DNA of 64,000 bases from Candidatus Micrarchaeia archaeon (lineage in GTDB: Archaea; Micrarchaeota; Micrarchaeia; CAILAH01): contig JAVZCB010000001.1 in the NCBI GenBank assembly GCA_038874595.1, positions 132,397-196,396 on the forward strand, given 5' to 3'. Made by a program: the position numbers and the translations under genes. Under the pieces are notes generated by a model. The model was not told where the DNA came from and made no database searches. It was given only the letters and a program-made list of their open reading frames with translations. How positions within the stretch are numbered: the stretch's first letter is position 1; each line of letters opens with the position of its first letter. Shown here in pieces: positions 2,365-50,163 of this stretch.

Positions 2365-2660
2365 TTAGAAGGAGAGAGGTGGGCGAAGCCCCCTTCCTCT
2401 CCTCTTATGGGGCTGCCCAGATTTCCACGCCTCTTCTCGTGCAGATTTTTTTATCCTGCAAAGAGAGGGCTTTGAACTGGGGTCTCCAACTTATCCGAAG
2501 AGATAAATCTCTTCAACCCATCCCAGAGGTTGAGAAGGGAGGGGCTCTGCCTCACCCATGAAGATCCACTTTGTTGTGGATACATCTCAACACCCCGAAG
2601 GGGTTGGGTTGAGAAGGGAGGGGCTCTGCCCCACCCTTCTCCCGAAGCTGGAAGCATACC
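2365..2660. repeat. GC-rich hairpin/direct-repeat region (possible second structured RNA)
   Basis: Two near-identical 30-bp direct repeats GGTTGAGAAGGGAGGGGCTCTGCC(T/C)CACCC at 2528-2557 and 2597-2626, and a related GAGAAGGAGAGAGGTGGGCGAAGCCCCCTTCCTCTCCTC hairpin at 2369-2412. Also hairpin CTCAAC-a-CCCC-GAAG-GGGG-ttgg-GTTGAG at 2568-2603. GC-rich relative to surroundings. Confidence 0.3.
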
Positions 2661-2715
2661 AGGCTAGCCCACAGCCCCATGCTTATTACTAGCTCACCAA
2701 TTTCCTCGCAACGTT

Positions 2716-10034: not shown

Positions 10035-10985
10035 TCATAAGTCCCTAGCTGCTTTTTTGAGTGTTGACCAAAACTCTTTTTCTGCCTCTTTCCATTCATT
10101 TTCAATATCTGGGCGGAGTTTTGTGCGTGACAGTATTGTGTTGTGGAACAGTTCAAGCCCGCCAATTCTTCTTTCTAGGCCGAACGTTCCTGAAACCGAA
10201 GTTGCACGCGGAATTATATGTATTTTAAACATGTCCTTATCATATTCCGAAATCATCCAGTTTACCCCAATCCCTGAGGTTACCCGGGTATTAAGAAGGA
10301 ACTCTATGTTGTTTAGATTGTCTGTAGAAATACCATATAACCAGGCAACCCTTTCAAGATTATGATAGCCATACCCATACTGCACAACTTGCTCGTACAT
10401 TCTGCTTTGCACTAAACGGAAGAAGCCATCAAACAGCTGTGGGATAATGCTTCTAATATAATCGTACAAATCATTCCTGTGAATCTTACGCGTAACCGCA
10501 GTATCATACCCGTTGCAGAGTGTCAAATGCCCGCTTTCAACAAGAATAGGCACCGATAACGGGTCAGCTATCAGGTTTTCAGCAGATTTAAGCTCAAGAT
10601 ATTTTGACTCTTCCACCTTTGAACAAAGAAGATGGATGTGTAAGTGCCGTATCGTTTGCCCGGCAACAATCCCAAAATTGCCAAGTGCGGTTGCACCGGG
10701 GAAGTGTTGTAGTATTTTGCCGATAGCTGTGAACATACTATCAAACTGGTTCTTTGATATATTATGGAGTGTAAGCAGATGCTCTTTTGGTGTGATAATA
10801 CAATGTTGTGGTATATAGGGATACTTTGCCTTAAGTATCCTCCAGTTTGAGCTGCTTTCAACCAAAGGTTCCTCAGCAAGCGTACAAAATCTGCAATTTG
10901 ATATACCCTTGGTCTTCATCTCTCTTGATGTGAATGAAGGTGTTTTTTCGTCCCATCTAGGTGCCTTGATTTCATAGACGACCAT
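10035..10985 (-). CDS. HIT-superfamily nucleotidyltransferase, GalT branch (GalT / Ap4A phosphorylase-like)
   Basis: N-terminal CRFC zinc motif and histidine-triad-like TIRHLHIHLL; ~316 aa with a two-half architecture. Confidence 0.45.
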   Translation of the reverse strand: MVVYEIKAPRWDEKTPSFTSREMKTKGISNCRFCTLAEEPLVESSSNWRILKAKYPYIPQHCIITPKEHLLTLHNISKNQFDSMFTAIGKILQHFPGATALGNFGIVAGQTIRHLHIHLLCSKVEESKYLELKSAENLIADPLSVPILVESGHLTLCNGYDTAVTRKIHRNDLYDYIRSIIPQLFDGFFRLVQSRMYEQVVQYGYGYHNLERVAWLYGISTDNLNNIEFLLNTRVTSGIGVNWMISEYDKDMFKIHIIPRATSVSGTFGLERRIGGLELFHNTILSRTKLRPDIENEWKEAEKEFWSTLKKAARDL

Positions 10986-11095
10986 ACAGCGATATTATGA
11001 AAAATTATGGATTAAAAACATTTTGGTTTTTTGTGAAGCAAAAATGCGGGCGGCTGCGCCAAATAAAGCAGAATGGCCAAAAATAAAATGGGTAA

Positions 11096-11554
11096 TGGAC
11101 CTGCGCGGAATTGAACCGCGGATCTCTCGCGAAAGGGGGCATGTTTTCTTCAGCATTTTTGGCTGAAGATAAATTACCTTTCCCCACCAATCCCATATTT
11201 TAATGGAGTTGGGTCTTATGGGGCGTCTTTGGGCTTGCCAATGACGCGTCATTTTCCCGAAGGGAAAATGCACGGAGGGGGACACCTCCCCCTCACATTC
11301 CCAATACCTCAAAACCTCCTTAGAGGGGGAGTTGGGTCTTATGGGAGAGGGGGACACCTCCCCCTCACATTCCCAATACCTCAAAACCTCCTTAGAAGGG
11401 GAGTTGGGTCTTATGGGAGAGGGGGACACCTCCCCCTCACATTCCCAATACCTCAAAACCTCCTTAGAAGGGGAGTTGGGTCTTATGGGAGAGGGGGACA
11501 CCTCCCCCTCACCCATATGTGAGGCGAGCGTCTTAACCACTCGACTACAGGTCC
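11096..11554 (-). tRNA. tRNA-Val(CAC) interrupted by a 386-nt intervening sequence (11132-11517) at the canonical 37/38 position
   Basis: 5' exon (reverse complement of 11518-11554) GGACCTG-TA-GTCG-AGTGGTTA-AGAC-G-CTCGC-CTCACA. 3' exon (reverse complement of 11096-11131) C-GCGAG-AGATC-CGCGG-TTCAATT-CCGCG-CAGGTCC-A. Acceptor stem is perfect 7 bp; anticodon stem is CTCGC/GCGAG; T-loop is TTCAATT; U33 and A37 are in place; discriminator is A73. T-rich terminator follows the 3' end and a TATA-like TTTAATATT sits ~26-35 nt upstream of the 5' end. Confidence 0.7.
11275..11510. repeat. 72-bp tandem repeat, 3 full copies plus a partial fourth, inside the tRNA intervening sequence
   Basis: Units start at 11275, 11347, 11419 and 11491 with one substitution between copies. 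Each begins with the perfect palindrome GAGGGGG-ACACCT-CCCCCTC. A partial unit tail also occurs at 11205-11228. Confidence 0.9.
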
Positions 11555-11671
11555 ATTTGTATGGTTTTAAGGCGGCTTAATATTAAAATAATTCGCCGTT
11601 TCAGCATACCTGTGGCCACCTCAATAAGGATTAACAGCCTTCGCATAAGCAGAGATGAATTTGAAGGTATA

Positions 11672-12391
11672 ATGTCAAAGTATGGGATAACTCCAGTTTC
11701 ATGGTATAGTGGGGCGTACACTTCAGATTACGAAAATTTGAGTAAGACACTTGAGTACCAGCTTGGTTATTTTTATATCCAGTCACTTTCTTCAATGGTC
11801 CCACCACTCGTGCTTGACCCAAAACCTGGTGATGTCGTTCTTGACGTTGCAGCTGCCCCGGGCAGCAAATCAACGCAGTGCGCAATGCAAATGAACGATA
11901 AGGGAGTGGTTATTGCAAATGACGTGTCATATATGCGTTTGAAAAGCCTTGCAAGTCATATAAACCGGTTAGGGATAACTTGCATTGCAATGACCAATTT
12001 TGATGGCCGGAGGTTTCCTAAATTAGCATCGTTCAACAAAGTGCTATTAGATGCGCCGTGCAGTTCGATGGGCTCGCGCAGGTGCACAATCCAGCATTCA
12101 GATGGCAGGATAAAAAGCCTTGCGCATTTGCAGAAATCTCTGCTTTTGCGGGCATTTGACTTGCTTTCGCCTGAGGGCACACTTGTCTATTCAACATGCA
12201 CAACTACCATTGAAGAGAATGAGGGGGTTATTAATGCTCTCCTCGAAAAGAGGGATGATGTAGTTCTTGAAACACCCGTGCTGCCTTTCAGGCACGAAAA
12301 AGGCATTTCAGGCAATTCCGTAATAGATGAGAAGGTATGCAGGTTTACGCTTGATGAATCCTTTTTCATTGCAAAGCTGCGGAAGAGATGA
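11672..12391 (+). CDS. NOL1/NOP2/Sun-family RNA (cytosine-C5)-methyltransferase
   Basis: DVAAAPGSKSTQ (SAM motif I), LDAPCSSMG (motif IV PC), TLVYSTCT (motif VI TC). The ORF opens at 11561, but that would overlap the tRNA promoter, so the internal ATG at 11672 is preferred. Confidence 0.7.
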   Translation: MSKYGITPVSWYSGAYTSDYENLSKTLEYQLGYFYIQSLSSMVPPLVLDPKPGDVVLDVAAAPGSKSTQCAMQMNDKGVVIANDVSYMRLKSLASHINRLGITCIAMTNFDGRRFPKLASFNKVLLDAPCSSMGSRRCTIQHSDGRIKSLAHLQKSLLLRAFDLLSPEGTLVYSTCTTTIEENEGVINALLEKRDDVVLETPVLPFRHEKGISGNSVIDEKVCRFTLDESFFIAKLRKR

Positions 12392-12816
12392 TTATGGGCT
12401 CAAAATTCTCTGAATACATTAAATCGAGGTTCGGCATCATACTTAGCGATGAATTTGTAATAGAGGAGAGGACGAGCAAGGTTTACGTATATTCAAAATC
12501 TCTTGATCAATTAAGGTTAAGAAACATACACAGAAAAGGCATTCTTGCTGGCAAGCTCGATTCAATATACGGTGTCAAGCCATCACTGGATTTCGTGCTT
12601 GTGTTTGGGCATCTTGCACAGAAGAACAATATTACAATATCCGATGATGATGTGGTAAGGTTGTTTTCAGGTGAGAATATCGTGCTCAACTGCCAGCCAC
12701 AAAACTGCACAGATGGCCTTGTAATTCTCACATGCAGGAGAGGTATGGGTGTTGGTATTGCTTATAACAGGGGCGGTGTGCTGCAATCCCTTATCCCGAA
12801 AGACCGCCGGATATGA
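12388..12816 (+). CDS. hypothetical protein, possibly an RNA-binding (PUA-like) partner of the upstream methyltransferase
   Basis: 4-bp ATGA overlap with the methyltransferase; 142 aa; no catalytic motif. Confidence 0.3.
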   Translation: MIMGSKFSEYIKSRFGIILSDEFVIEERTSKVYVYSKSLDQLRLRNIHRKGILAGKLDSIYGVKPSLDFVLVFGHLAQKNNITISDDDVVRLFSGENIVLNCQPQNCTDGLVILTCRRGMGVGIAYNRGGVLQSLIPKDRRI

Positions 12817-23377: not shown

Positions 23378-24691
23378 GTGGTGTATATGGTTAAAAAGCA
23401 GGAACTTAAGCGTGAACTGGGCCTGTTCCAAGTTACAATGGCAGGTGTTGGATATATTTTAGGTGCAGGTATTTACGTGCTAATTGGTTTAGCTGCGGGC
23501 TATGCAGGTAATGCAACGTGGATTTCTTTCTTGTTAGGTTCTTTTGCAGCAATATTTACAGGACTTTCATATGCGGAATTGAGCTCTATGATGCCACGCA
23601 ACGCCAGTGAGTTCCTTTATGGAAAGCGCTCACTGGGTGAACTGTTCGGGTTTTTTGGGGCGTTTATGATGATGTTTTCAGCCATACTTGCATCAACGTC
23701 AGTGGCGCTTGGGTTTGCAAAGTATTTTTCATCGATGTTTGGTACGGACTCTATCGTACTGATTGCAGCAGGCATTATCATTTTGCTTACATACATTAAC
23801 TGGAAGAGCATAAAGGGCAGCTCAAACCTTAACATATTGTGTACTTTTGCAGAACTCGGAGGTCTGCTCATAATAATTGCGCTTGCATTGTTATATGGCA
23901 GTTCAGTTGACTTATTTGAGATGCCGAACGGCTTTGGTGGTGTGTTTAAGGGTGCTGCATTGGTGTTCTTTGCATACCTCGGGTTTGAAGGGCTGGTTAA
24001 GTTGGCAGAAGAGACAAAAGAGCCACATAAAACAATTCCACAGGCGCTTGTTCTCTCAATAATAATAACTTCGCTGGTATATATTGCAGTGGCAATTTCA
24101 GCAGTAAGTGTACTTGATTGGCATGAGCTTGCCGCATCAAAAGCACCATTGGCGGATGTTGCCTCAAAAGTTATGGGAAGTAATGCGTTTATACTTCTAA
24201 GCATAATTGCACTGTTTTCAACAGCCAACACTGTATTGATGGGGCTCGTGACATCTTCTCGCGGGCTTTACGGCCTTGCAACAGAATTCAAAAAGATAGG
24301 TGTTTTTGCAAGAGTGGGCAATACGGGCACACCAACCAACGCAGTTGTTATTACTGCCATCGTTGCAATATTGTTTTTGCTTATAGGGAGCATTTCTATT
24401 GTAGCGGAGCTTACAAACTTTACAATATTCATGACTTTTATTATAGTAAACCTATCTGTAATATTCCTCCGGTTAAAGGAACCACGAGCCAAGAGGCCGT
24501 TTAAAGTGCCGCTTAGCATTGGGCGTGTGCCTATACTGCCCGTGCTTGGGATTCTTACAGTTATATTCCTAACACTTAATCTTGAACCGTATGTTATCAT
24601 AGGTGGGATAATTTTTAGCCTGCTTGTAGTGCCTCTTTATTATTTTATTAGGAATCACGGTGGCAGAACAAAAAATAGGAAAACTATTTAA
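23378..24691 (+). CDS. APC-superfamily amino acid permease
   Basis: GLFQVTMAGVGYILGAGIYVLIG N-terminal consensus; 12 TM helices. Confidence 0.8.
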   Translation: MVYMVKKQELKRELGLFQVTMAGVGYILGAGIYVLIGLAAGYAGNATWISFLLGSFAAIFTGLSYAELSSMMPRNASEFLYGKRSLGELFGFFGAFMMMFSAILASTSVALGFAKYFSSMFGTDSIVLIAAGIIILLTYINWKSIKGSSNLNILCTFAELGGLLIIIALALLYGSSVDLFEMPNGFGGVFKGAALVFFAYLGFEGLVKLAEETKEPHKTIPQALVLSIIITSLVYIAVAISAVSVLDWHELAASKAPLADVASKVMGSNAFILLSIIALFSTANTVLMGLVTSSRGLYGLATEFKKIGVFARVGNTGTPTNAVVITAIVAILFLLIGSISIVAELTNFTIFMTFIIVNLSVIFLRLKEPRAKRPFKVPLSIGRVPILPVLGILTVIFLTLNLEPYVIIGGIIFSLLVVPLYYFIRNHGGRTKNRKTI

Positions 24692-24714
24692 GATATACTT
24701 TTTCCAAAAAATCT

Positions 24715-25299
24715 ATGAAGTTAAGGTATAGATATCCATCGGATTTAACAGCAAAGAACTGTAATGAGTTAGCTACTAACAGAAAAGAGTACGTAAAAGC
24801 ACTGGCTTCAAGGTATTTCAGGCTCCAGCATGGGAAAAGCATACTTTTAAAAAAACAAAAAGAATACAATAACGATCAGCAGAATCAGGATATATTGACA
24901 TTGCAATTGTGGAAAAATCACAATAAGATCCGTAAGCAGGAAGCGATGTTGCTCGCTACAATTAAAAATAAATCAGACTTCTATTCTGCTTTGCAAGGTG
25001 TTTATGACGATTACAAAAATCACGAGGTAAAACTCAAGGAATCCCTATTGAAAAATCATATTATGTATGCGATCATAATGTTCCAGATATTTCTTAATGG
25101 TATAATTGTTTATTGTAAAGAGCTTTCAGCAAAAGTGGCAATTTTTATTGGGGGTGCGGGAGTTTTTACAATATTTGCAGGAATGAGCAGTTTTTTGGAT
25201 TCTCTGCATAAAAATAAGGATTATAAATTACTTGAAACAACCTATAACCGAACAATTGAAAAGTTTACAGAGATTTTTAAAGATAGAGGGTTTATATAG
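24715..25299 (+). CDS. hypothetical membrane protein
   Basis: AT-rich, N/K-rich, two C-terminal TM segments; no motif. Confidence 0.3.
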   Translation: MKLRYRYPSDLTAKNCNELATNRKEYVKALASRYFRLQHGKSILLKKQKEYNNDQQNQDILTLQLWKNHNKIRKQEAMLLATIKNKSDFYSALQGVYDDYKNHEVKLKESLLKNHIMYAIIMFQIFLNGIIVYCKELSAKVAIFIGGAGVFTIFAGMSSFLDSLHKNKDYKLLETTYNRTIEKFTEIFKDRGFI

Positions 25300-25555
25300 A
25301 GAAATAAATTAAGAAATTCTAATATTTTATTAGAATTGATAGAATCAAGCAATTTTTTAGATTTTCTAAAAAGATATGGGTTTTATGTTTTAAAACTGTT
25401 TTAATCTATACCAACTGTTGATTTTTTTGGTAAACACAATGGGATAAAATACTTTATTGATAAACCGATTTGGAAGCTATAAACTCCTTTTTAAAAAGTT
25501 GATTTACCATTATGATGTTTAATGAAAATTTTTGATAGTACAACCTTGCTTGCAG

Positions 25556-25728
25556 CCCAAACTGGACCAGAAACAATGAAAACAGCTGGTGAGAAGGGTT
25601 TTTGTTTACTGCATCAGTAACTGTGCCAGCATTGCTGAAAATGCTGTTTACTTAAGCAGTTTACGATTTTTTACTTACTAAAATTTACGACGGAGAAAAG
25701 AGTTTGCATCTTTGGTCCAGTTTTGGCC
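25556..25728. repeat. element bounded by a ~19-bp near-perfect inverted repeat
   Basis: GCCCAAACTGGACCAGAAA at 25556-25574 versus TCTTTGGTCCAGTTTTGGCC at 25709-25728, flanking ~135 bp of non-coding sequence. Confidence 0.3.
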
Positions 25729-25879
25729 TGTGTACTAGGGGTAAATGCAAAAATAGTTATAAAAAATATTTTTGAATATTATATTAGATTTTCTAATAGT
25801 TTTTTAGAAAACAATATTCAAAAATAATATTCAAAATAATTAAAAGATAGAAAACCCAAAGGGTGCTAAAACTTTTTCT

Positions 25880-26275
25880 CTATCTCTTTAAAGAGCCAAG
25901 TGCAAATTTAATAAACTCGCTTAATGTGCCACCACCATTATGGTTCCACACTTTTGCAAGCTCCTTGTACTCATCCACTTCTTTTTTGTATTCTGAAAGG
26001 TGCTTTTCATATTGCGCTCTCTCATGTACTCCGGGGACCCAATGATAAGGGCATGCGCGGGAGTTTAAGCTTTGAAACCCTTCCTTTGTGGGCGAGAATG
26101 GATAGGTGCGGCAGAGCATAGGCCTGCTCTGATAGATTGAACAGCCCTCTGAAAAATAAAACAGGCATATGCGGTTATTATGAAGCTCTTTTTCCATATA
26201 AGCGGGATAGGCAGGGCCAATCCGCTTGTTATAAAGCTCTTTCCACTTAAGCACGATTAAAGAGCTCCCCTTCAA
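25880..26275 (-). CDS. YkgJ/UPF0153-like Cys-cluster protein, C-terminal motif only; TTG start per ORF track
   Basis: CLFYFSEGCSIYQSRPMLCRTYPF matches the family's C-terminal half. The N-terminal CxxCxxCC half was not found in frame. Confidence 0.35.
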   Translation of the reverse strand: MKGSSLIVLKWKELYNKRIGPAYPAYMEKELHNNRICLFYFSEGCSIYQSRPMLCRTYPFSPTKEGFQSLNSRACPYHWVPGVHERAQYEKHLSEYKKEVDEYKELAKVWNHNGGGTLSEFIKFALGSLKR

Positions 26276-26525
26276 TAAGGACAGCTGGCTCTGGGCGTTC
26301 CCGGCCTTCCTGCTCTGGGATCACGTGCAAAAAGTCTTCAGGTTCTAATCCAGTGGCTTTCTTTATTCTAAGAATATCATATGGATTAACACAAACCTTT
26401 AATTGTGTGTAATACCTTCCACAATGAAATCATCAGGTCGTTTTAATTATATTGACGATTTCCATGGGGTTATATAATATATTCTAACATAATGTTAGAA
26501 TTTCTAAATCTTTTTGAATAGATGC

Positions 26526-28736
26526 TTATTCAATTCGCATCAATAATGAATTTGAAACAACAGATATTGAGCTAAAAACCATTGCTATTCCAGCAATTAC
26601 TGGATTAAGAAGAAATCCATTAATTGGGTAAAGAACACCCATGGCAACCGGAATACTTACTATATTGTAGAAAAATGCCCAGAACAGATTTTGTTTTATC
26701 TTCTCATAGACGTACTTGCTGAGCTGTACCGCCGTAACAAGATCTGTCAAATTGTTCTTTACAAGAACAACGTTACCACTTTCTATGGCAACATCTGTTC
26801 CAGCACCTATTGCAACCCCTATGTTCGCCTGAGCAAGTGCAGGCGCATCGTTTATGCCATCTCCAACAAATGCAACCTTTTTCCCTGAAGACTGTAATTC
26901 CCTTACCCTAGCAGCCTTCTCATGTGGGAGTACGTTTGAAAGCACCTCATCTATTCCAGCCTCTTTTGCAATTGCCTGTGCAACCTGCTTATTATCTCCT
27001 GTTATCATCATGGTTTTATATCCAAGAGAGTGAAGTTTTGCTATTGTCACACGTGAATCTTCCTTTATTGTATCTGCTATCGCAAGCAACCCTATAATCC
27101 TATTGTTGACTGCAACAAAAACAACCGTTTTACCTTGTAATTCAAGCTTACGATATATTGATTCATAAACAATTCCCTTAATCTTGTGCATGCTCATTAA
27201 AGCAATGTTCCCAATTAGTACCTTCTTTCCTGAAACAACTGCTGCAATCCCATACCCTTCAATAGCATTAAAGTGAGAGGACTTAAGGATACGAACTTTT
27301 GCGTCCTTTGCTTTATTAACAATTGCCTGAGCAAGAGGATGCTCTGAGTTTTTTTCTGCTGATGCTGCGATTATAAGCAGTTCTTTCTGAGAACCTATAA
27401 CTGGGATGATATCCGTAACAACTGCCTTCCCTTTAGTTATCGTACCTGTCTTATCCAGAATAATCGTGTCAACCTTGTGAAGGTTTTCAAGACTCTCAGC
27501 ATCTTTGAAAAGAATACCTTTATCAGCACCCTTACCAGTACCGAGTACAATGGCAGTTGGAGTGGCAAGACCCATAGCACACGGACACGCGATTATGATG
27601 GTTGCAACAAATGTGGAGAGCGCAAATGTTAGAGATTGACCTACAACAAAGTACCAATATATAAATGCAGTAAGTGCTAAAACTAGTACCATCCATACAA
27701 AATATCCAGAAACGATATCTGCAAGTTTCTGTACTGGTGCCTTACTGCTTTGTGCATTTTCAACAAGATGTATTATTTGAGCGAGCAAGGTCTCGCTTCC
27801 AACCTTACTAGCCTTAAACTTAAATGACCCAGTTTTGTTTGTAGTTGCACCTATTACAGTATCACCTTTCTTCTTATATACAGGGAGACTTTCACCAGTA
27901 ATCATGCTTTCATCAATACTGCTTGCACCCTCTAAAATAATACCATCGACGGGTATTTTTTCTCCTGGCCTGACAATGACTATATCTCCAACTTGCACAT
28001 CACTTACATTTACTTCAACTTCCTTACCTCTTCGTATGACCCTTGCCATCTTTGGTTGTAATCCGATCAACTTTTTTATTGCTTCAGAGGTCTTTCCCTT
28101 AACAACTGCCTCCATATACTTTCCGATCGTGATAAACGTGATAATAAGTGCAGATGTCTCATAGTACATACTACCTTGTATTATATTAAAACCAGTTAGT
28201 ATGCTATACAAATATCCTGTCCCTACTCCTAATAGAACAAGACTATCCATTCCGGGCATCATGCTCAAAAAGCTGTGCACACCTCTAATAAAAGTCTCTC
28301 GGTTTATATAAAGAACAATTGATGTAAGAATAAACTGTGCAAGTGGAGTACCAGATATTATCATCTCTGGATATGTGATAGCTACGGTTCCATGCAACAT
28401 CTCAGGCAAAGCAAGGAGTAATATAAGGAGTGTGAGTATTATAGAATGAATTGCTCGTTGTTTCATATTCTGCATTTCACGTTCACGGGCCCTTTTTTCA
28501 ATATCTTCAAGAACAGGTTGTGCCTCTTCCTTTATATTGGTCTTATAACCGAGACTCTCAATCGTACTAGATATTGTGCGTAAATCCGCTGGTGCATCAT
28601 ACTCCACTAATGCTGTGTTGTTTACAAAGCTTACATTTGCCGAAGCCACTCCGGCTATTTTCCTCAACTTGTTCTCTATGTTTACTGCACAACTCGTACA
28701 ATGCATACCACTTATGTATACTTTTAACTTTTTCAT
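26526..28736 (-). CDS. copA: copper-exporting P1B-type ATPase
   Basis: N-terminal HMA GMHCTSC, CPC motif in [27 protein letters not shown]. Confidence 0.9.
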
Positions 28737-28768
28737 AGAATCATCTCTAGTTATCTAGAATTACAATT

Positions 28769-29845
28769 CTAACTACGTATACTGCAAGCGCGAGCATCAC
28801 TATCGCAGCAATCTCCACCACTAGCACAACAACCACAACCTGCAACGGAAGAAATTTGTGTTGGAGTAGACACTTTCTCACTGATAACCTTTGCAGGATA
28901 TGTTTTAAATACTTCAATTCCAAGGATCTGGTCTTTGTTTGCTATTCTATCATCATATTCAATATAGAACTTATTTGGAGAATCAAAACGCACATTGAGT
29001 ATGCCTTCAAGCCTCTTTAATTCGCTTGTTATAAGTGGTGCATGACCAGGGCAGGGAATAGATACTTCCAAGTATATTGACCTAAATTGCTGTTTGGAAG
29101 TTAGTGAGGTTGGTGCTGAAACTCTACTCTGTGCATTGGCAAATGTTGCTGTTGTAATTGGCTGTTGCACAGCTTGGATATTTGCAAGTATTGGAAATAT
29201 AAATAAGAACATTAAGAGATTAACTCCTACTGTGGTACCATACATTATTGCAAGATATTTCCACTTCTTTTTTGCACCCACCCACGAAAGCAAACCATTC
29301 TTGTGCAGGTACAATACAGATGAAACTGTCGCAAACCCAACTGAGATTAACAACAAAACATAAAAGAAGTGCTGGTTGAGCAATAGAGACTTAAAAAGAG
29401 ATGTCAGAAATGTAACTCCAAGTATTGAACCTATTATAAATGCAATGCAACCAATGTGCGGAATAAGCCCATATGTTATACCTTCTAGCAAGGGTGTGTT
29501 TTTTTCATTTGAATCGAGGTTTGCTTGTGTTTCTATCTTATCCGCGCCAATAGTGTATCCAAGAGATACTACAGTCTTTTTTATCACATCTATGGTTATA
29601 TACTGTGGATCAAAAGTTACCGTTGCTTTTTCATCTAAAAGATCTACGTTCACTGCCTTCACTCCCTCAAGACCTCTAATGGTATACTCTATCCTATCCA
29701 CACAACTCTTACAACGCATACCTTTTATCGAAAAGGTTTCCGTTTGCATGTTTTCGCTCATGGTTACAAATAAGCTGAAACTGCAGTTAAATATTTGTAA
29801 CAGAAAAATGAAACTGCATATATATTTCACTGAAACTAGTTTCAT
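28769..29845 (-). CDS. heavy-metal-associated (HMA) domain membrane protein with a Cys-rich C-terminus
   Basis: HMA1 GMRCKSC, ~4 TM helices, a second ferredoxin-like segment with CPGH, C-terminal GCGCCASGGDCCDSD. Start may be the internal MSENMQ. Confidence 0.5.
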   Translation of the reverse strand: MKLVSVKYICSFIFLLQIFNCSFSLFVTMSENMQTETFSIKGMRCKSCVDRIEYTIRGLEGVKAVNVDLLDEKATVTFDPQYITIDVIKKTVVSLGYTIGADKIETQANLDSNEKNTPLLEGITYGLIPHIGCIAFIIGSILGVTFLTSLFKSLLLNQHFFYVLLLISVGFATVSSVLYLHKNGLLSWVGAKKKWKYLAIMYGTTVGVNLLMFLFIFPILANIQAVQQPITTATFANAQSRVSAPTSLTSKQQFRSIYLEVSIPCPGHAPLITSELKRLEGILNVRFDSPNKFYIEYDDRIANKDQILGIEVFKTYPAKVISEKVSTPTQISSVAGCGCCASGGDCCDSDARACSIRS

Positions 29846-29849
29846 AATC

Positions 29850-30323
29850 TTACTTTCGGAGGAGGATCATGTTTGTCATTCCGCGCCTTCTTCTTTCAAT
29901 GAGACCTTTCCCCTCTAGCTTATCAAGCAGACGGGAAATACGCACCTTGCCAAACCCTGTCTTATCAACCAGTTCGGATTGGTAAATTGCACCATTTGAT
30001 TTAATAATTAGTTTAATTATCTCCTTTTCTTCACCAGAAAGTCTTGAATATAAGTCTTCCTGCTTGTTTGGTGCCGCAACATTAAATTCAGCTTTCTTTT
30101 TATCACTGAAAAAAATAAGATACAATCCAATTAAAATTATCACTACCATTATACCTAAACCTATGTTGGTCTGGAATTCTATTGTATCCCACATAGGGCA
30201 TGTAGGTCCATGTGTACATGATTGATTTACTATATCAGTTAATGCTGTGTTAAAAGAATATACAATATAACCTATAAGTATTGATATGAACACTATTAGA
30301 TATCCGATTGTTCGATTATCCAT
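29850..30323 (-). CDS. membrane-embedded winged-helix transcription regulator (putative metal sensor)
   Basis: TM1, loop CTHGPTCPMW, TM2, then a cytoplasmic wHTH ending GKGLIERRRRG. First gene of the copper operon. Confidence 0.5.
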   Translation of the reverse strand: MDNRTIGYLIVFISILIGYIVYSFNTALTDIVNQSCTHGPTCPMWDTIEFQTNIGLGIMVVIILIGLYLIFFSDKKKAEFNVAAPNKQEDLYSRLSGEEKEIIKLIIKSNGAIYQSELVDKTGFGKVRISRLLDKLEGKGLIERRRRGMTNMILLRK

Positions 30324-30379
30324 TTTGATCAGTATTTTTAGCCTTTATATGTTTTTATTGTTTATTTAGATCCCTTACA

Positions 30380-30399
30380 GGTGTCAATGAGTTGACACC
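30380..30399. promoter_or_regulatory. perfect palindrome GGTGTCAA-tgag-TTGACACC upstream of the copper operon
   Basis: 8-bp arms with a 4-nt spacer, 57-76 bp upstream of the regulator ATG. A TATA-like CATATAAA (minus sense) lies at 30344-30351. Confidence 0.35.
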
Positions 30400-30565
30400 G
30401 GACAGAGACTCACCTCTATTGTGATTAGAAGGTTATCTAAATATTATTTTCCTTAAGAGATTTTTGAGTATTTATATCGAACAACACCTATATAATAAAA
30501 TTTTGATATGTTGTTTCACAATTAATAGTTCTTTCTGAAGATAGAAGTTCTTTGATGAGAACTCT

Positions 30566-31207
30566 CTAGTAAACTTTAGCATTTTTAGTAGTAAGTGTTT
30601 CATGCCATAATTGTAGTGGTCTTACCTTTGAAACTTCTCTTTTAATGTGTGAAAAACACTTCTTTTCTTCGGCATTGAGATGGCCGCGTGTAAGGGTTAC
30701 CTGCCCCTTTCCCCTTGCCTTATTAAACGAAAACGTAAATCCAAACCCTATAAAGAAATCTCTCAAAAGACCATATTTTTCCTTGTCATATGTTTTACTT
30801 ATGGGATTATACCCTACATCCTCCCCAAAAATTTCCTCAACAATAAAAGCAAAATTGAATTTGTGCAATACATCAAGCATTTCCCTCATAAAATATGCAC
30901 CTTCCTGTGTACTAAACAGCTCTGGCCGCATATTAAAGTTAGGGTTTGGCGGGGAGTGGAATCCACACTTGTCTGATTTTACCAGAAGAATCCCAGCCTG
31001 TTTGCTTTCCATTGCCTCATCCCAGATTTCAACACTGAGCATTCTCCTTTCTTTTTTTGTGATTTTCCCAGTGTAGCTAAAATCTTTTGCGATTACAAGA
31101 TAATTCCTGCCACGGACATCTATTTTTTTAGGATAGCCGTCTGCAGGAACAGCATCAAGGTACGCAAAGAATTCCTCATTGGTTACTTCGTCACTACAGC
31201 TTCCCAT
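30566..31207 (-). CDS. hypothetical protein
   Basis: 213 aa; glycine-rich segment FIGFGFTFSFNKARGKG near the C-terminus; no confident assignment. Confidence 0.3.
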   Translation of the reverse strand: MGSCSDEVTNEEFFAYLDAVPADGYPKKIDVRGRNYLVIAKDFSYTGKITKKERRMLSVEIWDEAMESKQAGILLVKSDKCGFHSPPNPNFNMRPELFSTQEGAYFMREMLDVLHKFNFAFIVEEIFGEDVGYNPISKTYDKEKYGLLRDFFIGFGFTFSFNKARGKGQVTLTRGHLNAEEKKCFSHIKREVSKVRPLQLWHETLTTKNAKVY

Positions 31208-31291
31208 GTATGAATATAGATGTAAAAACTATATAAAAACGCTGAATTCTTCTAAGTAGGCTTATATTATTTGAATAGCCTTTATATCAAT

Positions 31292-31633
31292 ATGCGCTGG
31301 GTTCTAAGGTCAAAAATACACAATGCAACTGTGACAGAATCTAATCTTAACTACATTGGAAGTATCACAATTGATAAGGCGCTTATTGAAAAGGCTGGTT
31401 TTATCCCTGGAGAAAAGGTGACCGTTGCAAGCACAACTACAGGAGCACGGCTTGAAACCTATATAATAGAAGGAAAAAAGAATTCCGGTGTAATTGCAAT
31501 GAACGGCCCTGCAGCACATATAATAAAAGCAGGGGAACACGTCGTGATTATGGCGTTTGAGCTCGCTTCAAAGAAAATCAAGCCAAAAGTTATACTAGTT
31601 GATGAGCACAACCGTTTTTTGAGACAACTGTAA
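31292..31633 (+). CDS. panD: aspartate 1-decarboxylase, pyruvoyl-dependent (bacterial PanD type)
   Basis: LRSKIHNATVTESNLNYIGSITID (Gly-Ser self-cleavage site), ETYIIEG, NGPAAH. Start taken at MRWVL. Confidence 0.8.
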   Translation: MRWVLRSKIHNATVTESNLNYIGSITIDKALIEKAGFIPGEKVTVASTTTGARLETYIIEGKKNSGVIAMNGPAAHIIKAGEHVVIMAFELASKKIKPKVILVDEHNRFLRQL

Positions 31634-31643
31634 AAATGGCCTC

Positions 31644-32123
31644 TCATTTAAAGCCCACTAGCATGCTTCCCACACCAATGAACATAAGAAACAGTGCCAA
31701 TCCAGTACACACACCCTCATTAAAGGGTGATTCACTTTTGAATGCTGCCGCAGGCAATACATCATTAAGCTGTGCCTCACAATCGGCAATACACTTCTGG
31801 CGTTGTATGTTTGCATTTGACATTACATTATCAAGGCAGCACTTTTGTAATGAGTCCCAGCATACAGTTATACAAGTATCCCAGTTTGAGCTGTTGCACA
31901 TCTCCCTGCACGCATAGAAGTCTGAGGGGCATTTTTCTTTTGGGCTAACTACACTGTCAGGACATCGCATTGGTGATGTGTCTGCCACCCCCCAGTGTCC
32001 ATAATTTGCCTTTTGTGTTTCAATATAGTCGTAATATTCTGTTTGGCATTTTGCAGCACATTCATTAGCATAAGCTAAAGAGAATGAAACAACAACCAAC
32101 ATAAGAAAGAGCTGCCTTATCAC
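31644..32123 (-). CDS. secreted Cys-rich protein with a C-terminal TM anchor
   Basis: Signal peptide, 16 Cys, C-terminal hydrophobic segment GLALFLMFIGVGSMLVGF. Confidence 0.35.
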   Translation of the reverse strand: MIRQLFLMLVVVSFSLAYANECAAKCQTEYYDYIETQKANYGHWGVADTSPMRCPDSVVSPKEKCPSDFYACREMCNSSNWDTCITVCWDSLQKCCLDNVMSNANIQRQKCIADCEAQLNDVLPAAAFKSESPFNEGVCTGLALFLMFIGVGSMLVGFK

Positions 32124-32173
32124 GCTATAAAATTAGGTAGTAAAATTAATAACTATATATAAAACCAAACGGC

Positions 32174-32647
32174 TTATTCGTCCATTTTTTCTACAATTTT
32201 ACTTACCAATTCTTCTCTATCGCAATTTAGGCCGTATTTCTTAATTATCTCATCTGCTGCTCCGTAAAAAACGGATCCATTATGCAGCAAAAGATTGCGC
32301 TCTCCCTCTATATATCTCTGATGCAGCTTTTCCATTTCGGGAGTGATCTTAACATTAACCCCTACTAGATTGTTGTTTTTATCATAGCACATTATTGTTG
32401 CATAGTTGCCATCTTTGTTGCTAGTCAAAGATTGCTCTTTGGTGTTAGATAATGGATTTTCAGGATTGTTTTGGCACGCCGTTGTAACCATTAAAGACAT
32501 TAATGCAATAGCGGCACCAGTACGTGCTTTTCTTAGTATGCGTTTTACTATGCCTTCAGGAGCAGGTTTTTTTTGCATTATCACCTGCGAAAACGTATTT
32601 TTCTCTGGTTGGCCTTCATTATGCAAAGTGTTTTGTTTGTGATTCAT
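32174..32647 (-). CDS. hypothetical lipoprotein-like protein
   Basis: TM/signal segment ending TTAC (lipobox-like). Confidence 0.3.
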   Translation of the reverse strand: MNHKQNTLHNEGQPEKNTFSQVIMQKKPAPEGIVKRILRKARTGAAIALMSLMVTTACQNNPENPLSNTKEQSLTSNKDGNYATIMCYDKNNNLVGVNVKITPEMEKLHQRYIEGERNLLLHNGSVFYGAADEIIKKYGLNCDREELVSKIVEKMDE

Positions 32648-32702
32648 GAGGATATTTTATAAGAACACATATATATAATTTTCTTTTAAGCTGTTGTGAT
32701 TC

Positions 32703-33269
32703 TTGTGGTATAAAAAAGAAATCTTTATATATTACAAAAATAAGAATAAATACATGTCTGAGATGCAAAATCAATTGAAGCCCAAATATCTCAAGAAAAC
32801 TGTTGCGAGCGTGCAGGAATTCAAAAGAAAATTCCTTGAATTCGATAAGGATACTGCAAAAAAAGAGCTTGATAACATCAAAGAGATTTTTTATTATGAG
32901 AAAAAGGCAGCTGCAAGAAAGAGTGAACGGCTGTACAAAATAGAGAATATCTTAGAAACGATAGAAAAAAATTCATTTGAGAATTTTATATGTGCTTCAG
33001 TATGCCTTCTTGGCTATTATGGCTCTGCAGGATTTCTTGTTGGGTCGATTGTAAGTTATCTGAAGGGAGATGTTGATACTTTTAAGAATTTGTTTAAGAT
33101 AAGCGTTTTATTTGGTGGAGGGGCTACAGTTTTCTTAGGTGTATGCAGACTAATCGAGCAAGCCGCAAATTATTTAATAAGAAAGTGTACTGATAAAGAA
33201 TTGGAAATTTACGAGGAAATTCGCAGGACGGATAAAGAGATTCATAATATTGAGAAAGAAATCAAATAA
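32703..33269 (+). CDS. hypothetical membrane protein with coiled coil
   Basis: K/E-rich helices and two central TM segments. Confidence 0.3.
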   Translation: MWYKKEIFIYYKNKNKYMSEMQNQLKPKYLKKTVASVQEFKRKFLEFDKDTAKKELDNIKEIFYYEKKAAARKSERLYKIENILETIEKNSFENFICASVCLLGYYGSAGFLVGSIVSYLKGDVDTFKNLFKISVLFGGGATVFLGVCRLIEQAANYLIRKCTDKELEIYEEIRRTDKEIHNIEKEIK

Positions 33270-34082
33270 TTACATTATTTTTCGTATTTCTTCAATCCGC
33301 TTTTCAGCAGGCACTGATACCTTATAGAAATCCCAGAATATATCCTTTACAAATCGTATCCATATCGGGTCCTTTATTTCGTAATATATAGTTTTCTTAA
33401 GTGCTGCCGGCGTTTCAACAAGCCTTACCAACTTATCATCAACTATTGCGCCTCGGAGCGGCTGGTCAACGTGCCGTATATCTATTGCATCCATCCCAAA
33501 TTTTTTATTTAGCATAAGAAGCTGCTCAACCCGATTAAGGGACTTTGTATCTATCCGTCCAAGCATATGTATTGTTGTGCCTCTCTCAATCACATCAACA
33601 ATTGTTTTCATAACCTTTTTTCCTTTTTCGGTACTTTGTACCCACGAGAAATCTCCAGAGAATGAAAGGTATTCATTTTTGGCAAGTTGCAAGAGGTTAT
33701 TTATGTCTTCATGGCCTTTTTCTATAAATGTGGTCTCCTCAGCCTCCCAAAATGCCTTTTTCATTTTCTCATCAACATACTGATACAATTCGAACGGCGA
33801 AAAATCCGTTTTATTGTTAGCGTTCATAATTCTCTTATATAGAAATTTCATCAATTGGCCCTTGTTTTTTGCATCCGCAGTTATAAATACAATTTTTAGA
33901 CCTCCTCTTAAACCGTTTTTGAAGACATGTGTAGATATCGACCCATCTGTTTTACACAATTCATCAATGTATTTATCAGCCGTTTTCCATGAAACTTCTA
34001 ACGAGTTAGCGATTTCTATTATAGAATGCGGCCTTTGTGCCAGGAGTTGTTTTATTTTATCTATTTTATCCGGTGAGAGCAT
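33270..34082 (-). CDS. TrmB-like transcriptional regulator (N-terminal wHTH plus C-terminal sensor domain)
   Basis: N-terminal IIEIANSLEVSWKTADKYIDEL HTH; length and architecture fit TrmB. Confidence 0.4.
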   Translation of the reverse strand: MLSPDKIDKIKQLLAQRPHSIIEIANSLEVSWKTADKYIDELCKTDGSISTHVFKNGLRGGLKIVFITADAKNKGQLMKFLYKRIMNANNKTDFSPFELYQYVDEKMKKAFWEAEETTFIEKGHEDINNLLQLAKNEYLSFSGDFSWVQSTEKGKKVMKTIVDVIERGTTIHMLGRIDTKSLNRVEQLLMLNKKFGMDAIDIRHVDQPLRGAIVDDKLVRLVETPAALKKTIYYEIKDPIWIRFVKDIFWDFYKVSVPAEKRIEEIRKIM

Positions 34083-37093: not shown

Positions 37094-38518
37094 TTACTCG
37101 TAAAGTGCCTGCATCTTCCATCTGCCTTTTTTGATTGCAATCTCCGAAAGCTTTGCAGAATTTTTCTCGGCTTCTTGAATTTCTTTTAAAACGCGGCGCG
37201 GGCTCACATACCCCCACGTTTTAAGTGCTTGTGCAAGCTCTGGATGTGTTTTTGCATATTCTGGTGCAGGTATCCCTTTCATTACGGCATCTACTGCTTG
37301 CCTCATTGACATTGCACCTTTTCTGGTGCCCCCAGGGTGCCCGTGTACACCAGCACCTGCCTGCAGATTTGTATCTTTCCCATGGAGCGCCACCACAGCA
37401 TCAACCATAGCAGCATTCAAGCCCCCAGATGCGATGCTTAGCATTGGGTTAATACGAGGGACGAATTCCATCGCAAGCGAACCTAAATACATCTTCTCCT
37501 CAATTCTAAACTGGTCGGCAATTTCGTGCAACCGCTTTATCATAAGGGGTGAGCCCTCCATTTTACCGACACCCGTTCCTATGTGCAGCTGGTCAATTCC
37601 AAGCAGCCTGTAAAACTTTTCATACACCTGGAAATTAATACCGTAATTGCCTCTGTTTGCAGCAGCGTATCCAGCACGGTGCCCGTGTGTTGCAAACCCA
37701 TATTTCTTTGTTAGTTCAAGAATATCCTGCAGTGCACTCATTCCCATAACATATACATCCAGCATTACAAGCACGTTTCTCTGCAAGCCCATATCCTTAA
37801 GATAGTCAATACGCTCAACCATTCGCGAGTACCTGTCAGTGACATTACAGGAGTACAAATGGTTCTGGTTCGTCTCATTGCCAGCCTTCTCAATTGATCT
37901 AACAGTCTCGTGCAGCCTGTCTTTCCACTTGCAGAAATCCTGGTCTACAAGGTTCTCATCATCTTTTACTAAGTCTATCCCGCCAGCATATGCTTCGTAT
38001 GCAACACGTGCCCATTCTTTTGCAGTTAATCCCACCTTCGGCTTCACAATGGTTCCTATATGAGGTCTTCTGCTTTTTAATGTCCCAGCAAGCTTTCTTA
38101 TGCCATCCAGGCCGTGGATAGGCCCTGTAAATTGCCTTTGGAACTCTATGGGAAAGGATACATCAAATATGTACAACTCCTCAAGCTCTTTAAGGCCAAA
38201 AATGTTACCAAAAACAGATGCCATAAACTGCATTATGTTCTTTTTATCAAAATGCTCAAGTGGGTATGCAATTTTAATAAATCCGCTCTTTTTGTCAACC
38301 TTACCAATCCAAAATACACGTGCACGGTAGTGCTTCCACACGAAATCATTCATTGTCTTAAGCTTGGTCCAGGAACCCACACTGCTTTCTGCCGCGATTG
38401 CCTCGGCAATTTTTTCAATGCTTACCTTGCCCTTTGCCCACATCAGAACAATGAAATCATTATCTTTGTCAGGGACATACTTGTAATCTATATAATCATA
38501 CCCCCCATATGCCATCAC
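37094..38518 (-). CDS. rbcL: ribulose-1,5-bisphosphate carboxylase large subunit, form III
   Basis: GIDLVKDDENL, GTIVKPKVGLTAKE (carbamylated-Lys region), HGHRAGYAA. 474 aa with a ~30-aa C-terminal tail. Candidate TATA (ATAAATA on plus) at 38551-38557. Confidence 0.9.
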   Translation of the reverse strand: MMAYGGYDYIDYKYVPDKDNDFIVLMWAKGKVSIEKIAEAIAAESSVGSWTKLKTMNDFVWKHYRARVFWIGKVDKKSGFIKIAYPLEHFDKKNIMQFMASVFGNIFGLKELEELYIFDVSFPIEFQRQFTGPIHGLDGIRKLAGTLKSRRPHIGTIVKPKVGLTAKEWARVAYEAYAGGIDLVKDDENLVDQDFCKWKDRLHETVRSIEKAGNETNQNHLYSCNVTDRYSRMVERIDYLKDMGLQRNVLVMLDVYVMGMSALQDILELTKKYGFATHGHRAGYAAANRGNYGINFQVYEKFYRLLGIDQLHIGTGVGKMEGSPLMIKRLHEIADQFRIEEKMYLGSLAMEFVPRINPMLSIASGGLNAAMVDAVVALHGKDTNLQAGAGVHGHPGGTRKGAMSMRQAVDAVMKGIPAPEYAKTHPELAQALKTWGYVSPRRVLKEIQEAEKNSAKLSEIAIKKGRWKMQALYE

Positions 38519-50111: not shown

Positions 50112-50163
50112 CTCAATTATTTCACCCATATAGATAACACCTAATTTTTCAAACCTTGCTAGG

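Follow-up and report, generated by a model that had tools for sequence, protein, structure and literature searches.

Archaeal tRNA introns are usually about 11 to about 120 nt in length. In Candidatus Micrarchaeum acidiphilum (ARMAN-2), splicing endonuclease EndA is of the epsilon2 type and cuts strict as well as relaxed bulge-helix-bulge (BHB) motifs, and the substrates tested carried introns of 13 and 25 nt (PMC3239211, PMC12397907). For the Thermoproteales, similar introns in different tRNA genes have been described under the term 'intron transposition' (Fujishima et al. 2010, as cited in PMC4033280). Here we analyze the 386-nt intron of a tRNA-Val(CAC) gene in a 64,000-nt stretch of a Candidatus Micrarchaeia archaeon (assembly GCA_038874595.1, contig JAVZCB010000001.1), which is referred to as the window and to which all positions refer unless another locus is named; related loci and contigs carry L numbers. 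We establish the identity of the gene, the position of the intron, the anatomy of its repeats, differences in copy number between strains, the homology of the repeated module across genes and species and its potential to form BHB motifs. Overall, we consider it probable that this 37/38 intron of a functional gene is spliced out and has expanded from duplicated splice-site hairpins, and that the expansion varies in copy number and is tolerated. It is a member of a family of long, modular tRNA introns that is specific to this lineage and widespread in it. No description of such a family was found in the literature searched for long or repeat-containing tRNA introns in DPANN archaea.

With introns allowed, ARAGORN placed tRNA-Val(CAC) at c[11095,11555] with an intron of 386 nt and a tRNA of 75 nt once the intron is removed. 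A U/C ambiguity at position 38 shifts this call by one base; the 37/38 placement with C38 (11132-11517) is the cut fixed by the strict BHB of relatives. Neither default ARAGORN nor Rfam detected any RNA gene in the 64 kb. The gene and its putative signals are arranged as follows.

11096-11554, minus strand: tRNA-Val(CAC) gene, from ARAGORN with introns allowed and a manual cloverleaf
11518-11554, minus strand: exon 1 (nt 1-37), with the anticodon CAC at 11521-11519
11132-11517, minus strand: intron of 386 nt at the canonical position 37/38
11096-11131, minus strand: exon 2 (nt 38-73), CCA not encoded
11579-11588, minus strand: TATA-like box TTTTAATATT, putative archaeal promoter, 25-34 nt upstream of tRNA nt 1
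11079-11088, minus strand: T-run TTTTATTTTT (RNA sense), putative terminator downstream of the tRNA

The two exons join into a canonical cloverleaf, and exon 2 contributes the sole intact T-arm within the window. The ARAGORN call and the canonical placement bear out the original prediction, made from the sequence without database searches, that 11132-11517 is the intervening sequence of a tRNA gene. Boxes resembling the TATA-like box are also present upstream of tRNA-Val in L011 and L013; judged by sequence, the box and the T-run may act as promoter and terminator.

The conservation of the exons bears on whether the gene is a pseudogene in decay, or has been interrupted by the insertion of a repeat, and is no longer spliced. 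We regard this as very improbable. The exons of tRNA-Val are identical or nearly so across species in which the neighbouring proteins are merely 53-77% identical, and they are perfectly conserved despite unalignable introns; exon 1 has the same sequence in the window, L011 and L016. Among the relatives the acceptor stem shows a compensatory change from U6-A67 to C6-G67, the promoter-like and terminator-like signals are retained, and a junction type without the central BHB helix, CC(C/U)UUN|C, is kept in four lineages. In favour of a pseudogene one can cite that this real 3' junction is not a strict BHB and that a tRNA-Val(UAC) could in principle read GUG.

Within the intron, Tandem Repeats Finder detected a single array of 3.3 copies of a 72-nt unit (period 72, 99% matches). 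This result, together with an 18-mer at 11205-11222, agrees with the three full copies, one partial copy and remnant of a 72-bp unit that had been recognized by inspection. The parts of the intron are:

11275-11512, minus strand: tandem array, 72-nt unit, 3.3 copies
11275-11346, 11347-11418, 11419-11490 and, partial, 11491-11512, minus strand: the individual copies of the array
11491-11510, minus strand: GC palindrome GAGGGGG-AGGUGU-CCCCCUC (RNA sense) of the first copy; the others lie at 11419-11438, 11347-11366 and 11275-11294
11177-11228, minus strand: degenerate copy of the unit (CCCAUAAGACCCAACUCC...UAUGGGAUUGGUGGGG) in the non-repeated part, from the exact 18-mer and an alignment by eye
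11241-11268, minus strand: palindrome AUGACGCGUCAU (RNA sense) and UUCG-loop hairpin UUUUCCC-UUC-GGGAAAA, in the non-repeated part
11132-11172, minus strand: 3'-terminal part of the intron, hairpin UCUUCAGC/GCUGAAGA (spanning 11144-11172) followed by CCCCCUUU directly before exon 2

The 20-mer palindrome GAGGGGGACACCTCCCCCTC occurs four times at a spacing of 72 bp (11275, 11347, 11419, 11491). With up to three mismatches allowed, the 64 kb contains no further copy; the chance expectation is 0. Together with its flanks UAUGGG/CCCAUA, the GC palindrome forms a hairpin that begins at the 5' splice site, in place of the BHB helix h'. This hairpin folds at -26.3 kcal/mol (z -4.2), and the region is also matched by R1, a covariance model of the hairpin module that was run with filters off. 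A second element, the 18-mer GGAGTTGGGTCTTATGGG, is present in every unit and once more at 11205-11222, where the degenerate copy gave a weak R1 match (11205-11228). In the non-repeated part, the palindrome ATGACGCGTCAT at 11241-11252 and the hairpin TTTTCCC-GAA-GGGAAAA at 11252-11268 are exactly as had been reported; both are unaltered in L001 and L002. Copy 1 of the array differs from copies 2 and 3 by a single base.

The array differs in copy number between closely related strains, as had been predicted. Over 21 kb, locus L001 (GCA_038891275.1) shares 99.77% identity with the window, and its tRNA-Val intron measures 170 nt. It lacks exactly three units of the array (3x72 = 216 bp), the breakpoint being located within the palindrome, so that 3.3 copies of the unit in the window stand against 0.3 in L001, as in a variable-number tandem repeat. 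The Logan contig L002 carries the same array-less junction and begins at the 31-mer that distinguishes the two Val intron alleles. This start is probably a branch of the assembly graph, and both alleles may coexist in that sample. A further, independent Logan contig (L027) encodes an RsmB protein identical to that in the window; it starts out in exon 1, crosses the first palindrome and breaks off within the unit. Since the array is read by L027 and the array-less junction by L001 and L002, both alleles are real.

That the tandem array might be an artefact of assembly is suggested by the behaviour of short-read assemblies, which break or collapse at the Val intron. We nevertheless hold an artefact to be highly implausible. 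The distinct base in copy 1 argues against an assembly loop, L027 shows the palindrome-unit junction independently, the array-less 31-mer junction cannot derive from the array allele, and arrays of the same kind are found in further introns and further assemblies.

Among these introns are those of two more tRNA genes of the window:

2408-2678, minus strand: tRNA-Pro(CGG) gene with a 149-nt intron at 37/38 (2492-2640) and a 47-nt intron in the T-loop
2079-2293, minus strand: tRNA-Gly(UCC) gene with introns of 45 nt at 37/38 and 94 nt in the T-loop, missed by standard tools

The Pro gene is not detected by ARAGORN because of its second intron in the T-loop, and Rfam misses it too. Over the shared 21 kb, the window and L001 differ by indels of 1, 7, 216, 158 and 43 bp, and all three indels longer than 7 bp lie within tRNA introns, namely those of Val, Pro and Gly. 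The 79-nt unit of the Pro(CGG) intron is present in 3.4 copies in L001 versus 1.4 in the window, and the 43-nt unit of the Gly(UCC) 37/38 intron in 1.9 copies versus 1. The Gly intron of the more distant relative L011 contains a 42-nt unit of its own in 2.9 copies (L011 12233-12353). In another pair of relatives, L014 and L015, the RsmB proteins are identical, yet the Val introns differ by 76 nt (175 vs 99 nt), and the Val intron of L013 carries an extra 52-nt duplication. Six short-read contigs (L002, L012, L018, L019, L027 and the chimeric L017) break or mis-join inside tRNA introns, in line with these being hotspots of change. At 37094-38518 and 48396-52686 the window encodes a RuBisCO large-subunit homologue and the mismatch-repair proteins MutL and MutS, so that an evident absence of MutS/MutL does not account for the unstable repeats.

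The repeated module belongs to a family that extends over different tRNA genes and species. Orthologous Val introns are 176 nt (L011), 227 nt (L013), 175 nt (L014), 99 nt (L015) and 185 nt (L016) long, whereas the intron of the more distant relative L022 comprises only 16 nt (AGAAUUCUGCUGGGAA). Those of L012, L018 and L019 are partial, the contigs stopping within the intron, and no tRNA-Val adjoins the loci L021 and L023-L026. All long introns begin with a hairpin of the same shape directly at the 5' cut. Its lower stem of 6-7 bp reads UAUGGG/CCCAUA or AGAAGGG/CCCUUCU, and its upper part consists of one mismatch, a G-rich/C-rich stem of 5-8 bp and a loop of 3-5 nt. The motif (C/AG)ACCCAAC follows and opens a second hairpin. 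Seven sequence variants of the module adopt the same hairpin fold with z-scores of -2.5 to -4.8. In a model-guided alignment of the modules 79% of the cells pair, and seven of 13 pairs are changed on both sides; we regard the covariation support for the hairpin as moderate, since the purine and pyrimidine arms pair even when slid against each other.

In the 64 kb, R1 matched only the Val intron and 2525-2640 within the tRNA-Pro intron, and nothing outside tRNA introns. Within the 149-nt Pro intron lies a homologue of the Val unit, a 79-nt module present in 1.4 copies. R1 also matched Val and Pro introns of the relatives L001, L011, L013, L014 and L015, and L016 merely weakly (E 0.67); matches in both the Val and the Pro intron of one genome, as in a shared intron family, were obtained for the window, L001 and L011. 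The two module types can change places. The Pro intron of L011 opens with the UAUGGG...CCCAUA-AGACCCAAC type that belongs to Val in the window, its Val intron is of the AGAAGGG...CCCUUCU-CAACCCA type that belongs to Pro in the window, and L013 and L014 contain both types in tandem. These relationships indicate that modules are common to, and pass between, the introns of different tRNA genes, as far as can be read from the sequences. At L017 (GCA_049699455.1, minus strand from ~3358), the 5' half of a tRNA-Val and G5/C5 hairpin modules run into a tRNA-Pro(CGG)-type 3' half. This Val/Pro chimera could be either a misassembly via repeats common to both introns or a real recombinant. The sister assemblies L018 and L019 show differing module arrangements.

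A generic dispersed repeat, for instance one resembling miniature inverted-repeat transposable elements, was rejected, as modules are confined to tRNA introns across the 64 kb and about 100 kb of related loci. Likewise, in the loci searched the unit was not found at the many unrelated intergenic sites that a generic minisatellite would occupy; only a related module was found, and only in another tRNA intron. Among GTDB representatives the 20-mer GAGGGGGACACCTCCCCCTC had no match in archaea and only eight unrelated bacterial matches. Exact copies are located on three contigs of one Zixibacteria metagenome-assembled genome (L005, L008, L009) and on two of one uncultured bacterium (L003, L007); these copies, often near contig ends, are probably an unrelated repeat of those genomes. 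A first metagenome pattern search gave no match. A viral origin of the module was rejected as well, since viral contigs yielded one chance match.

The units also carry elements of the splice sites themselves. The relevant feature is:

11436-11450, also 11364-11378 and 11292-11306, minus strand: pseudo-3' splice junction UAUUGGGAA|UGUGAG of the unit

The BHB scans looked for a strict motif in which the central helix H has 4 bp and stops 2 nt short of either cut, with h as the outer and h' as the inner helix. Together with the real exon 1, the pseudo-junction forms a strict hBHBh' (H=4, h=5, h'=3), a score attained by 22 of 20000 dinucleotide shuffles of the unit. The predicted cuts fall between 11442/11441, 11370/11369 and 11298/11297 and would excise 76, 148 or 220 nt. 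The pseudo-junction matches the real L022 junction UGGGAA|CGCGAG and resembles UAUGAGAA|CGCGAG of L013-L015. The unit therefore contains a diverged version of the ancestral 3' junction together with six bases of exon 2. Similarly, the Pro units hold UUCGGGG|UGUUGAGA, to be compared with the real Pro junction UUCGGAUA|AGUUGGAGA, and the Gly units of L011 open with AGCUU, as does exon 2. In this way the palindrome and its flanks mimic an anticodon stem that carries both half-sites.

These features invite the reading that the modules are a selfish mobile intron element, in which each unit is an excisable mini-intron that spreads among tRNA genes, e.g. through reverse splicing at BHB sites with subsequent reverse transcription and recombination, and the array is a record of self-insertion. 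Homologous modules lie in the introns of two tRNA genes, the types are swapped between species, each array begins at the 5' splice site, each unit (Val, Pro, Gly) has a copy of the 3' junction, and a strict BHB arises between exon 1 and the Val units. Intron families common to tRNA genes in Thermoproteales, as far as they are summarized in PMC4033280, provide a precedent. However, DNA recombination between palindromes accounts exactly for the array-less allele, which is not a copy of partly spliced RNA: CUCACA-UAUGGG-UGAGG is observed, whereas CUCACA-UGUGAGG would be expected from a retro-copy. The Pfam scan revealed no reverse transcriptase or integrase in the 64 kb, no module was found outside tRNA introns and none in viral contigs, and the swap could be mimicked by differential loss from an ancestor with both types (as in L013 and L014). 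We therefore consider a mobile element rather doubtful, even though it would be compatible with a tolerated expansion.

For the tolerated expansion of a spliced-out intron, we infer a mechanism, an enzyme and the neutrality of the array as follows. In the simplest history, a short ancestral BHB intron, still 16 nt long in L022, would have grown by repeated tandem duplication across the 3' junction, the elements copied being the h' hairpin by the 5' cut and the 3' junction with the first bases of exon 2. The outcome would be a two-hairpin module of about 72 nt. Its copy number would then shift at the DNA level, through slippage or unequal recombination between the palindrome-bearing direct repeats of 20-27 bp; the array-less allele is what DNA recombination of the first palindrome with the last would produce. 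The whole intron would be transcribed within the pre-tRNA and excised, presumably by a broad-specificity endonuclease of the epsilon2 type known from Micrarchaeum, and RtcB would ligate the exons. Changes in copy number would be tolerated because the entire intron is transcribed and cut out, and with its excision the array itself would have no required function. As related modules occupy the Pro intron of the same genome as well as Val and Pro introns of other species, sequence has passed between introns of different tRNA genes.

Neutrality of the array has to be weighed against the alternative that the excised intron is a functional structured RNA, such as a stable circle that sponges up proteins or ribosomes, a decoy for the endonuclease or a determinant of intron-dependent tRNA modification, with the number of units tuning the dose. 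Its hairpins are very stable and of conserved shape, a long intron is retained in tRNA-Val across a clade, an m5C-type RNA methyltransferase gene is always adjacent, and tRNA introns excised in archaea and metazoans can persist as stable circles. Yet the entire array is missing from a 99.8%-identical strain, intron length and content vary widely among close relatives, the Shine-Dalgarno-like motif is not conserved, and searches for an Rfam family, C/D boxes or a K-turn signature gave no result. A functional RNA is thus improbable in our estimate. The same evidence separates two parts of what had been proposed for the intron. As a structured scaffold it is indeed rich in stable hairpins, but a role as functional RNA or protein scaffold is not supported, the array being missing from the 99.8%-identical genome. 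The Shine-Dalgarno-like motif UAAGGAGGU is present in the RNA sense, but it is absent from the Pro-intron modules and from other species, arguing against a function. A coding role was dismissed correctly: the open reading frames of 181, 97 and 82 amino acids exist, but the homologous introns of 16, 99, 170, 175, 176, 185, 227 and 386 nt conserve neither a frame nor a peptide, and a look-up of the artefactual 181-amino-acid reading frame returned no record. A CRISPR array had been excluded with equal justification, as the 52-nt 'spacers' are identical and no cas families occur in the window.

Several points weigh against a neutral, spliced-out expansion. The real Val junction of the window, L001, L011 and L016 has none of the four base pairs of helix H (CUCA vs CCCU), and splicing of this helix-less junction by the known route is assumed. 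The Pfam scan detected no gene for the splicing endonuclease EndA or the ligase RtcB in the window. Transcription, excision and fate of the intron are deduced from sequence. The shape of the hairpin is kept despite sequence change, and the units retain a strict BHB half-site; both could reflect selection on internal modules instead of neutrality. Tandem duplications also occur outside tRNA introns in L013 (1168-1423, 129 nt x 2; 10225-10352, 68 nt x 1.9), and introns are thus not the sole repeat-prone sites in this relative.

The real junction deserves a closer description. In L022, L013, L014 and L015 the true Val junction is strict (H 4/4, h=5), with CUCA paired to UGGG or UGAG and followed by AA|C, and the tRNA-Pro junction of the window is also a strict BHB. 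In the Val intron of the window, the strict hBHBh' formed by nt 32-35 with intron nt -6 to -3 and two 3-nt bulges is absent. The helix-less introns end with CCCUU(U/G/A)|C in the window, L001, L011 and L016 and with UCCUUU|C in L012. Their exons are identical across species with 64-77% identical flanking proteins, so the gene must be functional and the junction must be processed somehow. Excision is plausible, since the ARMAN-2 enzyme cuts motifs without one regular bulge. In constrained folds of this class, the 3' cut lies 2 nt past a G/C helix internal to the intron, and nt 32-37 are unpaired beside the first hairpin. Just within the intron lies a purine tract whose 5' part is able to pair with CUCA and whose 3' part is able to pair with the CCCCCU tail, although the base composition makes such pairing easy by chance. 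As a hypothesis from these models, the purine tract could act as a 'splint' in a three-way junction in which each cut would still lie 2 nt 3' of a short helix. Nested introns and two-step splicing that would yield a canonical BHB at the real junction were considered by hand from the BHB scans and rejected, as all registers tried failed.

Combining splint and pseudo-junctions leads to a more far-reaching picture, which we put forward tentatively and consider rather unlikely as a whole: a hitherto undescribed kind of tRNA intron, a self-duplicating array in which each repeat is a complete, endonuclease-recognisable mini-intron with a splice-site mimic. Stepwise processing would release several small, possibly circular RNAs, modules would move between tRNA genes, and in one sublineage the central BHB helix would be replaced by the three-way 'splinted' junction. 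If true, the splinted junction of the helix-less sublineage would extend the known substrate range of archaeal splicing endonucleases.

The neighbours of tRNA-Val(CAC) are genes for a HIT-family protein and an RsmB/NOL1-NOP2-Sun methyltransferase, with GGGP synthase nearby, and the order RsmB - tRNA-Val(CAC) - (HIT) is conserved across the orthologous loci. These genes and the NCBI names of the closest proteins assign the window to Candidatus Micrarchaeia, a DPANN lineage. At all of these loci the RsmB/NOL1-NOP2-Sun (Trm4-like m5C) methyltransferase and PUA-domain genes (window 11561-12816) adjoin tRNA-Val(CAC); they are divergent from it at most loci and on the same strand in L016. Certain m5C modifications in yeast depend on introns, and a tie between the methyltransferase neighbour and the retention of the intron is a speculative idea. 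At L011 2440-2590, the last 15 nt of tRNA-Val and about 38 nt downstream (TTCCGCGCAGGTCCATATAAGTTTTCCTGCGCGTTTTTGCTTCGCAAAAAACCA) are present twice at a distance of about 83 bp, a pattern reminiscent of att-like tRNA 3'-end duplications, but with no element between the copies. Elsewhere in the window, the region 24000-34000 has a GC content of 0.34-0.40 compared to about 0.43 in the remainder. Its products include a heavy-metal P-type ATPase, a protein with an HMA domain, a regulator resembling MarR and several proteins that lack any Pfam match; the region may be an acquired island.

Our results have consequences for the annotation of tRNAs, as introns that are long or multiple conceal all three tRNA genes of the 64-kb window from standard finders and Rfam. 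For this technical reason, DPANN genomes may seem poor in tRNAs. In addition, tRNA introns make up the main large structural differences between these near-identical strains and break short-read assemblies. The series of introns of 16, 99, 175, 227 and 386 nt illustrates how an archaeal tRNA intron may grow via duplication of its own splice-site elements, and the conserved junction type without the central BHB helix poses a testable substrate question for the broad-specificity epsilon2 endonuclease.

With regard to known classes of RNA, several identities of the intron were tried and rejected. A group I or other self-splicing intron or known ribozyme is not indicated, with no credible Rfam match at gathering or permissive E-values. 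For a box C/D or H/ACA guide RNA, no Rfam snoRNA/sRNA match and no box pairs by eye were found, and the hairpins are nearly fully paired without a pocket. In a K-turn, G.A pairs would be required that are missing on the pyrimidine arm. A rolling-circle multimer of the whole intron is incompatible with the unit of 72 nt, which is not the length of the intron, and with the junction of the tRNA-Gly repeat, which mismatches a circle junction. The tRNA-Trp intron of Haloferax volcanii (about 105 nt) encodes a box C/D guide RNA and is likewise unusually long and inserted at 37/38; unlike it, the intron of the window has no C/D boxes, guide complementarity or Rfam match.

When compared with canonical archaeal 37/38 BHB introns, which are cut by EndA and joined by RtcB, the intron described here occupies the same site and follows the same logic of removal from the anticodon loop, and the relatives L022, L013, L014 and L015 show the textbook motif with the 4-bp CUCA/UGRG helix, 3-nt bulges and the 5-bp anticodon stem. 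The intron of the window differs from this class by its 386 nt, its content of tandem modules and the missing central helix with the real 3' junction. The relaxed BHB or bulge-helix-loop (BHL) introns of ARMAN-2 stem from the same class of organisms, and the epsilon2 enzyme cuts motifs that lack one regular bulge (PMC3239211, PMC12397907). These introns of 13 and 25 nt have no repeats, whereas the class of the window combines 0/4 central pairs with an insert of 170-386 nt. The Thermoproteales families, to the extent that they are cited in PMC4033280, likewise include tRNAs of different species within a genome whose introns resemble each other, as those of Val and Pro do here; in contrast to that description, the shared module is here tandemly amplified within one intron and strain-variable, and the lineage is DPANN. 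Finally, the head-to-tail 72-nt units, the differing copy number between near-identical genomes and the breakpoints in the repeat correspond to what is found in minisatellites and other variable-number tandem repeats, but here the arrays are confined to spliced tRNA introns and the unit is built of splice-site elements.

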